UHGV virus genome: UHGV-0038079
Reading direction: 5' to 3' (one strand)
Length of the DNA: 27,742 bases
Origin: a virus
The position numbers and the translations under genes are program-made. Below, piece by piece: positions 24,131-27,278 of the stretch. How positions within the stretch are numbered: the stretch's first letter is position 1; each line of letters begins with the position of its first letter. The notes below the pieces were generated by a model. That model was not told the origin of the DNA, searched no databases, and saw only the letters and a list, made by a program, of their open reading frames with translations.

Positions 24131-24489
24131 ACGTTCTCCAGTTCGGTGATTTTTATTCCAAGCCTTCCGCCTGGTACTTTCACACCACGAATTACGCGAA
24201 TGTCATCGAATTGCTCGTCGTCTTCCGCAAATCCGGCGTGGATAAGGGAGTCGAGTAAACCTTTCAGGATGTTGTCGAGGTCGCGGCGGCGGGAGTCTGG
24301 AACGTCTGCGATGACTTTGATGCGGAGTCGTGATTTGGTGAAAATGTCTAACTTAAGTTGGCGGATGATTTGCTGAACGTCTTTTCGGTATTTCTGGCCT
24401 TTATCGCTTATGTAATATTGGCTTCCCCGTCTTCGCCAGTAGGTATTCACCGACGGCGGGTATGGAAGCACAAACTGATATTCGTTCAT
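24127..24489 (-). CDS. rusA: RusA Holliday-junction resolvase, 120 aa
   Basis: LPYPPSVN...DVPDSRRRDLDNILKGLLDSL...GGRLGIKITE matches RusA hallmark motifs. Confidence 0.85.
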   Translation of the reverse strand: MNEYQFVLPYPPSVNTYWRRRGSQYYISDKGQKYRKDVQQIIRQLKLDIFTKSRLRIKVIADVPDSRRRDLDNILKGLLDSLIHAGFAEDDEQFDDIRVIRGVKVPGGRLGIKITELENV

Positions 24490-24776
24490 GACTTAATCTT
24501 CCCCTCCTTCAGCAGTATCGCCTGCGTCCTGATTACGCCTTCGAGGTGGTAAAGTCTGGCGTCTTTGTTGTCGAGATTATGGGTGCGTCGGTCGATTTCA
24601 TCGTGGCAGTCACTACAAGCCCATGCGCCGATCAGGTCGTCAGGTTTCATTCCCGTTCCGCAAATTCCAGCCATCCGGTAATGTGCCAGAACTGTAGTTT
24701 CAGGATTACCATTGCATACGCCGTAAATACGTACCTGGCATTCTCTGCCGCGTGCTTCTTTGCGTAGGTTAGCCAT
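24486..24776 (-). CDS. YbcO-like putative nuclease (DUF1364), 96 aa
   Basis: MANLRKEARGRECQVRIYGVCNGNPETTVLAHYR...CSDCHDEIDRRTH closely resembles DLP12 YbcO as recalled. Confidence 0.75.
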   Translation of the reverse strand: MANLRKEARGRECQVRIYGVCNGNPETTVLAHYRMAGICGTGMKPDDLIGAWACSDCHDEIDRRTHNLDNKDARLYHLEGVIRTQAILLKEGKIKS

Positions 24777-25498
24777 TAAGCAGCCTCCCCGGTTACTTTC
24801 AGCATCCCGTTATCGAGCAGCTTTCTGGTCAGCCACTGTTGACCACGCCCGGTGATTTTTGTGGTGAACGATATCTGTATTCCGTGATTTGTGTTGACCG
24901 CTGTTTCTTTCACTGTGAAATAGCCGCGATCCATATATTCCTGCATTGGCACATTGCGCCGGGAACCTGAAGCAATTAGGATTTTGTGATCGCGCATCCA
25001 CGCAAACAGCTTGTTCGGACCAATACCGACAACCTTTGCAAAGTTTCCAATCAAAATTCCGCTGGCCTCGCCAACGCGATCGGCAAACTCAACTTTAGGT
25101 GCGGCAATTGCGAGCTGGTTTTCCAGTTGCATTTTCTGCTCAGCAAGATCAGCAGCAAGGCGCAACGCTTCCGGTAGCGTTTTGGGGATATTAACCGCAG
25201 CTTCTTCAAGCTCTCGCCAGCGGTCAACAAGGCGAGCGGTGAACTCTGGCGACAACTGAGCGACAACGACAATACTGTCTCGCTTACCTTGTTCGCCCTC
25301 GAAGACGTAATGCTCGTACTGAACATTGAACCCTAAGTTATTGATTCTTTCGGAAACCTCAATTTGAGGAAGCCGGATAACACCATTTTTAGCCAGCGTT
25401 TCGATGGTACGTTTCACATTGTCATGACGCTTACCCACCAACTCAGCGATTTCAATGCTTGTCATTTTGATGGCATTGCCATTTATTAACTCATTCAT
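24776..25498 (-). CDS. Antirepressor-like regulatory protein (Rha N-terminal domain + KilA-C/ANT C-terminal domain), 240 aa
   Basis: N-terminal SIEIAELVGKRHDNVKRTIETL (Rha-like), C-terminal ...GNFAKVVGIGPNKLFAWMRDHKIL (KilAC-like). Confidence 0.7.
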   Translation of the reverse strand: MNELINGNAIKMTSIEIAELVGKRHDNVKRTIETLAKNGVIRLPQIEVSERINNLGFNVQYEHYVFEGEQGKRDSIVVVAQLSPEFTARLVDRWRELEEAAVNIPKTLPEALRLAADLAEQKMQLENQLAIAAPKVEFADRVGEASGILIGNFAKVVGIGPNKLFAWMRDHKILIASGSRRNVPMQEYMDRGYFTVKETAVNTNHGIQISFTTKITGRGQQWLTRKLLDNGMLKVTGEAA

Positions 25499-25667
25499 CG
25501 TCTTCTTCCTCGTACATTGAGCTATTCGGATCGCTCATCAGTTCTGTACAGCACGCTTCACATACATGAACTTCCAGCACATGCAGCTTCTGACCGCAGT
25601 TAGCGCACGTTAAAGCCCGCTCGACGCTTTCTTTCTGGTATTGGAGGGATTGGGATGGGATAAGCAT
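25491..25667 (-). CDS. ninF: NinF-like protein, 58 aa
   Basis: [40 protein letters not shown] matches lambda NinF as recalled; start set at the internal Met of the track ORF. Confidence 0.75.
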   Translation of the reverse strand: MLIPSQSLQYQKESVERALTCANCGQKLHVLEVHVCEACCTELMSDPNSSMYEEEDDE

Positions 25668-26067
25668 GGCTTTCACCATTAAAAAGTCGCTTGTAAGCAT
25701 CAATGTCTCGTTTTGCTTCACCAAGCTTTCGTCTTAATTCCATGTTTTCTGATTCAAGCTTTTCCATGTCTTGCTGGTATCGATCGCGGTGTTCTTTCCA
25801 TGCTTTTTGATACGCCTTCATGTATGTCATGTTGGCCTTTCTCTTTGCCTGACGAACTGCGTGGTGGTTTTTAACAAACCAGTCAGGGTCGTTAAATGCT
25901 GCTCTGGCGCATGTATACCAATAATTTGTTGCCTCCCTGTTTAGCCAATAAATACTGATAAATGGCAACCGGATAGACACCATTTTTCGTTGTGACTCTT
26001 TCTCGCCAAACATGTGCCCTTTTTTGATGCTAAGGCCAAATCCAGGTTGAATTAAAAGCATTGTCAT
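25600..26067 (-). CDS. Hypothetical protein, about 155 aa, between ninE and ninF
   Basis: ATG 26067 overlaps the ninE stop (ATGA); predicted coiled-coil segment ([31 protein letters not shown]) and Pro-rich tail; 3' end overlaps ninF by 68 nt out of frame. Confidence 0.45.
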
Positions 26068-26240
26068 TTCCTCGCACGATGTCTTAGCCACCGGATATCC
26101 CACAGGTGAGCCGTGTAGTTGAAGGTTTTTACGTCAGATTCTTTTGGGATTGGCTTGCGTTTATTTCTGGAGCGCTTCGTTGGAAGGTATTTGCAGTTTT
26201 CGCAGATGATGTCGGTGATACTTCGTCGCTGTCGTCTCAT
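26064..26240 (-). CDS. ninE: NinE-like protein, 58 aa
   Basis: [47 protein letters not shown] matches lambda NinE as recalled; ATG overlaps the dam stop (ATGA). Confidence 0.75.
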
Positions 26241-26764
26241 GCTGCCCTCCTGACGCCCTGCCCGATCGCCATCAATGCCGCTTTGGATACGGTAGTAAAC
26301 ATCCGTCGAGGACTGATGAACGGTCGCCAAATCAGCAGCATGGAACCTTTGCTGTTTCCCTTCTTCTCCAGCCCTGTCGATGGTTCGATAAAATTAATCC
26401 GTCCATCAGTGATGATGCGAACTTCGTCAACACTCTCCAGAGCCTTGCTGAACCATCCGACAGACATATCCTCTGGCACAAGCATCACTACCGTCTGTCG
26501 CTGTTGCATGCACTGCTCAGCGGCTTTTTCCACCCACGGCCTGATATTGCTGTACGGTGGGTTATTCCAGATTGCACCGTGGCTTATCCACTCAGAATTT
26601 AGCGCGTCGTCAGCCTCAGTTAGCCAGTGAGCGCACAGAGCATTTTTGTCGCTCGCTGCCGAATCCAGCCAGAATCCAAACTCAATATCCAGTGCATCAA
26701 AAAGCCAAAGCGGCGTTTGCCAGCAGTCCTTGTCGTGTGCTGGCGTATTTGATTTGATAGTCAT
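26237..26764 (-). CDS. Phage-type DNA N6-adenine methyltransferase (orphan Dam family), about 175 aa
   Basis: [16 protein letters not shown]-terminus and NPPY catalytic motif (IWNNPPYSN); ATG 26764 overlaps the ninB stop. Confidence 0.8.
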
Positions 26765-27201
26765 GCAGCCCGATCTCCCCATCGCGCTTTCCATTCGAGA
26801 GCCAGTCGCGCTTCGTCTGACCACTTAACGCCACGCTCTGTACCGAATGCCTGTATAAGCTCTAATAGCTCCGCAAATTCGCTTACACGCATCCTGCTGG
26901 TTGACTGGCCTATTACCACAAAGCCATTCCCGGCAAGGTTAGGAACAACGTCCTGCTGCTTTAATGCTGCGGTAAACACACACTTCCAGCTTTCTGCATC
27001 CAGCCAGCGCCCATGCCATTCAACCTGACGAGAGACGTCACCAAGGCAAGCCCAAAGCTTTCGATTCTGGTCTAAGCTGCGGTTGCGTTCCTGAATGGTT
27101 ACTACGATTGGTTTGGTTGGGTCTGGAAGAATTTGCTGTACCGCGTGAATAGCGTTTTGCTGATGTGCTGGAGATCGAATTTCAAAGGTTAGTTTTTTCA
27201 T
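26761..27201 (-). CDS. ninB: NinB recombination protein, 146 aa
   Basis: MKKLTFEIRSPAHQQNAIHAVQQILPDPTKPIVVTIQERNRSLDQNRKLWACLGDV... essentially the lambda NinB sequence as recalled; start set at MKKLTF (27201). Confidence 0.9.
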   Translation of the reverse strand: MKKLTFEIRSPAHQQNAIHAVQQILPDPTKPIVVTIQERNRSLDQNRKLWACLGDVSRQVEWHGRWLDAESWKCVFTAALKQQDVVPNLAGNGFVVIGQSTSRMRVSEFAELLELIQAFGTERGVKWSDEARLALEWKARWGDRAA

Positions 27202-27278
27202 GACTTCCCTCTCCCCCAAATAAAAAGGCCTGCGATTACCAGCAGGCCTGTTATTAGCTCAGTGATGTAGATGGTCAT
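27198..27278 (-). CDS. Putative 26-codon hydrophobic peptide ORF, translationally coupled between ren and ninB
   Basis: MTIYITELITGLLVIAGLFIWGRGKS; SD GGAGG 8 nt upstream; ATG overlaps the ren stop and its stop overlaps the ninB ATG; encoded across the tR2-like hairpin, so it may be a chance translation. Confidence 0.3.
   Translation of the reverse strand: MTIYITELITGLLVIAGLFIWGRGKS
27216..27250 (-). terminator. tR2-like intrinsic terminator between ren and ninB
   Basis: Minus-strand AGGCCTGC-TGGTAATC-GCAGGCCT (8-bp stem) followed by TTTTTATTT. Confidence 0.6.

Follow-up and report, generated by a model that had tools for sequence, protein, structure and literature searches.

A phrog_1511-family gene in the ninE-ninF exchange slot of a lambdoid nin region, extended by the loss of its stop codon

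Tight packing of the nin genes by ATGA junctions is documented for the phages P22, L and lambda (PMC8022706), and in lambda these genes are dispensable for plaque formation (PMC10695390). The joint between ninE and ninF differs among the described phages. In lambda it is empty, ninE being joined to ninF directly by a GTGA overlap. In P22 it holds ninX, the product of which matches PF10765 (E 4.1e-31) and is also of unknown function. In HK629 it holds the gene for gp55, which is annotated as 135 aa long and overlaps ninF by only 8 nt. Literature searches (ninX/ninF; bZIP with prophage) returned general nin-region background and nothing on the family to which gp55 belongs, phrog_1511.

The window analyzed here is the whole of a 27,742-nt stretch of viral DNA (UHGV-0038079). 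Its right end is a nin region of the HK629/E212/N7 type, with 95-98% identity over the stretches that match, in which an extended form of the gp55 gene is situated between ninE and ninF. An earlier note, made from the sequence of this stretch, held that the gene has no equivalent in the lambda nin region, and this is borne out, because lambda ninE runs straight into ninF. The positional equivalent in P22, a point absent from that note, is ninX, which occupies exactly the same slot and is unrelated in sequence. The features of the region are, in window coordinates:

24486-24776, minus strand: YbcO-type putative nuclease (PF07102, E 3e-44)
24776..25498, minus strand: Roi-like Rha/KilAC (ANT) protein, downstream of ninF (Pfam ANT, E 7.7e-33; Phage_pRha, E 6.3e-09)
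25491..25667, minus strand: ninF, 58 aa, zinc-ribbon-like (Pfam NinF, E 1.6e-12; phrog_672, E 2.8e-36)
26067..25600, minus strand: phrog_1511-family gene, stop-loss allele (translation, PHROG match)
25600..25602, minus strand: TAA stop used by the extended open reading frame (sequence)
25603..25659, minus strand: read-through tail, codons 137-155, in an alternative frame of the ninF 5' region (same peptide after the stop in phages with other cargo)
25660..25662, minus strand: stop-loss codon TAT (Tyr136), TAG in relatives (DNA alignment with HK629, H-19B and P22)
25663..26067, minus strand: conserved 135-codon core, the normal extent of the gene (PHROG profile to aa 135, HK629 gp55 of 135 aa, dN/dS)
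26064..26240, minus strand: ninE, 58 aa (Pfam NinE, E 7e-44)
26237..26764, minus strand: Dam-type N6-adenine DNA methyltransferase, upstream of ninE (Pfam Dam, PF05869, E 7.3e-65; 175 aa in carrier contigs)
26761-27219, minus strand: NinB (PF05772, E 1e-54)

Translation of the window gives an open reading frame (ORF) of 155 aa from the first ATG, closed by the TAA at 25602-25600. The first ATG (26067-26065) overlaps the ninE TGA (26066-26064) in an ATGA junction, and at its other end the ORF shares 25600-25667, a stretch of 68 nt, with ninF out of frame. All that the earlier note had stated of the ORF at the level of sequence is confirmed: the translation and the Pfam matches of the neighbors agree with 155 aa between ninE and ninF and with the out-of-frame overlap, the coordinates agree with the ATGA start, and the Pro-rich C-terminus is present as quoted. 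The note gave no strand, which is minus. A Shine-Dalgarno sequence, GAGGA, is situated 2 nt ahead of the first ATG and 8 nt ahead of a second ATG at 26061. Because of this spacing the second ATG is the likelier start, and the product would then have 153 aa. Most database entries of the family are called as 133 aa (153 aa for the stop-loss form), which fits a start at the second ATG. Rfam scans and promoter and terminator scans of the ORF region on both strands found no internal promoter, terminator or Rfam element.

In the contigs that carry the same allele, the genes follow the replication module in the order NinB-Dam-NinE-X-NinF-Roi-YbcO-RusA-NinH-Q, where X is the extended gene. Judged by ORF sizes and position, the order in the window is the same through RusA and Q. 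The Dam gene meets its neighbors by overlapping stop and start codons, forming an ATGA with ninE. The extended gene likewise has overlapping stops and starts and lies in the early right operon between the replication genes and Q, as is usual for lambdoid nin genes. As with other nin genes, plaque formation probably does not require it, which the empty slot in lambda also suggests.

The product matches phrog_1511, annotated as 'unknown function', with an E value of 2.6e-86. The match is full-length, residues 3-135 aligning with positions 1-133 of the 133-position profile. The family is typically 131-135 aa long and ends just inside the downstream gene, whereas the window protein has 153-155 aa. 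Using tblastn, the family was found in 58 phage records, always as a 'hypothetical protein', so that the gene, which the earlier note had called unassigned, is not uncatalogued. These records include HK629 (gp55), HK630, mEpX2, ECP1, VT1-Sakai (H0039), Stx1 and Stx2 phages and P22-like Salmonella phages and, more distantly, Yersinia phage PY54 (ORF53). Hundreds of E. coli genomes also carry the gene. A search of 5.8 billion proteins yielded 80 protein clusters from E. coli, Salmonella, Klebsiella and Citrobacter, typically of 131-133 aa and having no Pfam domain. An exhaustive profile search gave 62 representatives of 123-141 aa, down to 19-30% identity. All 41 divergent members match phrog_1511; the PHROG families to which the relatives belong are phrog_1511 and phrog_8749, neither of which has a known function. 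No functional label came from Pfam and PHROG scans of the 41 divergent members, and Pfam, NCBIfam and PADLOC scans of the window protein gave sub-threshold coiled-coil noise and no significant family.

The nearest described relatives, the genes of HK629 (gp55), HK630, mEpX2, ECP1 and VT1-Sakai (H0039), are the same gene, having 95-99% amino acid identity over 135 aa, the same position between ninE and ninF and the same start context. However, genes of the gp55 type end at a TAG after 135 codons and overlap ninF by 8 nt, whereas the window allele has 20 more codons and an overlap of 68 nt. PY54 ORF53 and the phrog_8749-type proteins of N15/PY54-like phages are homologous at no more than 47% identity, with the same length and the same predicted architecture. 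Their genes lie in early-operon accessory clusters, as does the window gene, but without ninE and ninF as flanks; their C-termini differ and none has the extension. The neighbors in these clusters are RdgC, an exonuclease, a Lar-like protein, Dam or N6/N4 methylases, and DinI.

Compared with alleles at dS of 0.3-0.8, the phrog_1511 gene has a dN/dS of about 0.13. Because of this ratio, and because there are deep homologues of the same length, the frame is more than a chance ORF; by these measures it is coding and under purifying selection, in agreement with the earlier note, which had taken it for a real protein-coding gene. The ORF is, very probably, a genuine conserved accessory gene of lambdoid and other temperate enterobacterial phages, already catalogued though uncharacterized, the odd features of which come from a single stop loss.

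Several database records of the gene are irregular. Many entries in protein clusters P0057-P0075 are N- or C-terminal fragments, and two separate PHROGs, phrog_28676 and phrog_18832, correspond to halves of the gene, suggesting frequent disruption in cryptic prophages or fragmented assemblies. One cluster of 121 aa (P0074), named as a CII-family regulator (PF05269), is 100% identical to the window protein over half the query length and may be a fusion or deletion product. The locus of H-19B (L003, AF034975.3, 1501-1966) has one extra C, reading TTTATCCAGT vs TTTATCAGT, which frameshifts the gene, and the H-19B record leaves about 400 nt unannotated between two genes called 'nin orf-58'. The extra C is either an error of early sequencing or the mark of a pseudogene. 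In AU5Stx1 the match to the gene is in two pieces.

The extension can be traced to one nucleotide. Family members normally have 133-135 aa and stop at a TAG situated inside codons 2-3 of ninF (ATGCTTAG; CTT AGC), which results in the 8-nt overlap. The DNA alignment has ATGCTTAGCC in HK629, H-19B and P22 at the site of ATGCTTATCC in the window, and the start of ninF is ATGCTTAGCCC in these three phages vs ATGCTTATCCC in the window. The difference is a G>T at window position 25660 (A on the plus strand), which turns TAG into TAT and, in the ninF frame, Ser3 of NinF (AGC) into Ile (ATC). Without the TAG, translation would run on in an alternative ninF frame, for 20 more codons, before meeting the TAA. 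As judged from this alignment, both the basic, Pro-rich tail and the 68-nt overlap are due to the single stop loss. The same alternative-frame peptide can be read after the stop behind NinX and C5-methylase cargo. Since it follows the stop after any type of cargo, the tail arises incidentally from the sequence of ninF.

The earlier note had presented the long overlap and the Pro-rich C-terminus as characters of the gene. As family traits they do not stand, because they arise from one substitution and the stop is kept in 161 of 163 junctions. Likewise, of the frame that the note had proposed to follow in related nin regions, the 135 codons are conserved and the extension of 20 codons is not. 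Nor does the extension resemble an overprinted, dual-coding stretch: its 60-nt frame is closed by the TAG in 161 of the 163 relatives, and its sequence follows the NinF frame.

The joint is bracketed by the conserved 3' end of ninE and the conserved start of ninF (AATGCTTAGCC...), and between these at least three unrelated cargo genes are found. In the alignment and the slot census, the ninE end, ...GCGAGGAAATGACAATG, is common to all types of cargo and holds the Shine-Dalgarno sequence and both candidate starts. Whatever the cargo, its start is the ATGACAATG (MTM) at the ninE stop and its end the TAG in codons 2-3 of ninF. The cargoes are NinX-type genes (PF10765, 112-140 aa, internally mosaic), the phrog_1511 gene and a C5 cytosine methylase of 316 aa. 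P22 NinX occupies the slot in the same way as the window gene: the first three codons, the end of ninE and the closing ...AATGCTTAG at ninF are common to the two, and the ...GAGGAAATGACAATG and AATGCTTAGCC junctions are identical. However, the window protein has no PF10765 match and BLASTP gives no alignment with P22 NinX at E <= 100, and homology is rejected. The comparison shows that the ninE-ninF slot, situated in the delayed-early right operon, is recombinationally exchangeable. It is thus a clean lambdoid exchange slot, in which unrelated cargoes share one start and one stop, and the stop is owned by the downstream gene. Because the common stop lies within ninF, any mutation of the TAG would extend whichever cargo is present into the same peptide.

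The methylase cargo was found in two IMG/VR loci (L093 and L121; PF00145, E 6e-14), with an MTM start and the same AATGCTTAG junction, and has no counterpart in the window. A common variant of NinX, present in 27 loci (401-nt and 386/410/416-nt classes, e.g. L095, L137, L156 and L159), ends ...MMQRIQ* at an earlier stop, and its joint with ninF is different (...CLAHPNPFNTR in that frame). There are therefore at least two types of junction on the 3' side of the slot. A methyltransferase adjoins several family members, and a functional link to DNA methyltransferases was considered on this lead. It was dropped when Dam was found upstream of ninE in 31 of 77 loci with phrog_1511 cargo and in 26 of 65 with NinX cargo (40% vs 40%). 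Counts taken from the slot census do not represent frequencies, as one of its two scans targeted phrog_1511 cargo.

The loss of the stop is predicted to bear on ninF as well. With termination moved from 5 nt to 60 nt past the ninF start, termination-reinitiation coupling is expected to be weaker, and ribosomes reading through may occlude the ninF start. Gene callers often miss ninF in the carrier contigs, which is a side-effect of the extended ORF on annotation. The ninF frame extends upstream without a stop (window 25491-25724, minus strand), giving 77 aa from a TTG and 69 aa from an ATG; in a carrier contig (L199, 3362-3571) one gene caller chose the form of 69 aa. These longer forms are probably an artifact of the long overlap; P22 and HK629 annotate 58 aa.

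The stop-loss allele is rare in the collections scanned. At the junctions of IMG/VR and reference phages (n=83) there are 82 G and 1 T, and of 163 ninF 5' ends 161 encode 'MLS' and two, those of the window and L080, encode 'MLI'; these are non-random samples, the first IMG/VR scan having targeted phrog_1511 cargo. As judged by identity bands, an exact 41-mer spanning the site occurs in its TAG form in 284 records among 5,426 complete E. coli genomes and in its TAT form in none. The stop-loss form was absent from 185,579 species-representative genomes and had one match among JGI metagenome contigs, the scan of these two collections being for the stop-loss form alone. On the other hand, the exact 153-aa product is on record as GDP14983.1 (E. 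coli), which occurs on 83 contigs and in 169 index blocks of an assembly collection, and a JGI entry and GDP14983.1 together represent identical products of 153 and 155 aa. Carriers of the allele include the E. coli assemblies GCA_005395165.1 and GCA_037023045.1. Its occurrence on 83 contigs, and in several backgrounds, led to the rejection of a private mutation or a read error as the source of the stop loss.

The 468-nt gene is identical in all ten carriers examined, without even a synonymous difference, while the flanks differ by exchange of modules and represent at least three mosaic backgrounds. Upstream, the carriers have O/P, DnaB or IstB-like replication genes, in some cases together with an HNH gene; downstream, they have either Roi-YbcO-RusA or NinG-phosphatase. 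The nearest TAG alleles, of the ECP1 type, have an identical 135-aa core and three synonymous changes. Because the gene is identical in ten carriers with differing flanks, we read the stop-loss form as one young haplotype that would have had a single recent origin and then spread by recombination.

The coiled-coil segment proposed in the earlier note is borne out by structure prediction. The AF2 model of the full-length protein, a monomer calculated with a 23-sequence alignment, has a mean pLDDT of 80 and a pTM of 0.38. It has four beta strands (3-8, 13-18, 28-33 and 37-42), helices 44-59 and 61-67, and a long helix, 69-129, with pLDDT up to 94. The N-terminal 70 residues predicted alone with divergent homologues have the same topology (pLDDT 90, pTM 0.68). 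The core is thus laid out as a small beta/alpha N-domain (aa 1-67), a basic helix start (aa 69-100) and a heptad coiled coil (aa 80-129). The a/d pattern runs from M80 to F129 (M80, M83, W90, Y97, M101, L104, N108, L111, L115, I122, Y125, F129), with Asn108 at an 'a' position. Residues 65-100 have a pI of 10.3. Conservation peaks in a block from A57 to 78, which begins A57-F-N-D-P-D-W-F. D60, W63 and N67 hardly vary over the wider superfamily, forming a D-P-x-W-x3-N motif, and this is followed by a conserved (V/I)R-x-A-(K/R)(K/R)KA motif at aa 71-78. The tail has a pI of 11.6, is Pro-rich and contains an RKRR run; its 20 residues would be unable to continue the coiled-coil helix. A fold search of BFVD returned the window protein itself and uncharacterized proteins, with no structural relative, and a PDB profile search gave weak coiled-coil and bZIP matches only (E >= 0.15).

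Some of the 133-aa database entries have the source names 'bZIP transcription factor' or 'BZIP domain-containing protein', according to which the window protein would bind DNA by a basic region beside a leucine zipper. Like the eukaryotic bZIP proteins C/EBP and GCN4, it has a basic segment followed by a heptad hydrophobic zipper in one continuous helix, predicted at 69-129, with an Asn at 'a', and the PDB profile matches include C/EBP chains (E 0.4-1.5). However, coiled coils commonly give such weak matches, and the scores against Pfam bZIP_1 (PF00170, 13.6 bits vs a cutoff of 27.6) and bZIP_2 (PF07716, 10.1-11.9 bits vs 22.3) are below the gathering thresholds. Alignment by hhalign with six canonical bZIPs, the sequences of which were entered by hand, had 37% probability and covered the zipper (aa 92-129) only, leaving the basic region unaligned. 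The bZIP signature, N-x7-R/K nine residues before the first zipper Leu (N-x7-R/K-x9-L), is not found on the conserved residues: the Pfam alignment puts its Asn and Arg on the non-conserved N79 and Q87, and from the conserved N67 the 'd' positions are at N+16 and N+23, off by two from the canonical N+18 and N+25. Furthermore, the window protein has an N-terminal beta/alpha domain that the eukaryotic proteins lack. Membership of the bZIP family is rejected by the Pfam thresholds and by hhalign, a role as a bZIP transcription factor is unlikely, and the resemblance is architectural only, that of a basic helix followed by a zipper. Our own reading, of low confidence, is that the product is made early, is dispensable and forms a coiled-coil homodimer, by which a basic helix and a small N-domain would be offered to a partner, either nucleic acid or protein. 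The monomer model and the sequence periodicity suggest a dimer, probably parallel, formed by the zipper-like coiled coil (aa 80-129), which would present the basic helix start (aa 71-78) and the N-domain, joined through D-P-x-W-x3-N. Its most likely activity would be the binding of nucleic acid or of a host or phage protein early in lytic growth. It is about equally plausible, if still doubtful, that the protein binds or inhibits a host protein, for example in anti-defense or host takeover, and not nucleic acid. Long coiled-coil dimers are common among phage inhibitors. The protein is small and early-expressed from a non-essential region, its swappable slot is beside accessory genes and can hold a C5 methylase instead, and distant members are in accessory clusters with Lar-like, DinI, Dam and RdgC proteins. 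These arguments are all drawn from context; there is no PADLOC model match and no match to a known anti-defense fold, and the linkage to Dam, equal for the two types of cargo, is non-specific.

The tail calls for a similar choice. The stop-loss form is a tolerated minority allele and not a conserved design, although its spread into at least three mosaic backgrounds would also fit a mild advantage of the tail. Were the 155-aa form adaptive, the basic, Pro-rich C-terminus or an altered coupling to ninF would be under selection, and an early gene overprinting might be in view. The abundance of the haplotype, on 83 contigs and in 169 index blocks, is in keeping with this, as is the charge that so basic a tail would add beside the end of the coiled coil. 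Yet nearly all junctions keep the stop, the complete E. coli genomes and the species representatives have no exact match, comparable extensions are missing from the divergent members of the family, the residues of the tail follow entirely from the conserved NinF frame, and the haplotype has zero diversity and hence no record of selection, all of which makes an adaptive variant improbable. Equally improbable is the broader proposal that phrog_1511 and phrog_8749 are an unrecognized class of small phage dimers binding DNA or host proteins, a viral analogue of the bZIP grip in which a new beta/alpha N-domain, the conserved D-P-x-W-x3-N as a hinge and a basic helix continuing into a zipper would be united, with the stop-loss haplotype spreading by an advantage of the tail or of ninF coupling; if this were true, overprinting would be seen in progress at a mosaic joint of phages. 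An explanation by sequencing or assembly error, or by a chance open frame, would draw on the single-base difference on which the extension hangs and on older records with apparent errors in the gene, such as the frameshift in H-19B. It is effectively refuted, and its probability is negligible: the T allele is in at least ten independent assemblies (NCBI, ENA, Logan and JGI), and the dN/dS and the deep homologues show a coding frame.

The earlier interpretation is thus supported in part; the gene is a conserved hypothetical that was already catalogued, and its mosaic position was known. The Pro-rich tail and the long overlap out of frame give the impression of a special design, yet here they come from one lost stop in an ordinary gene. 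The phrog_1511 family is common in prophages of E. coli, Salmonella and Klebsiella, including Stx phages. Because it is so common, yet has no known function or structural relative, it is a reasonable, if non-urgent, target for functional screens.
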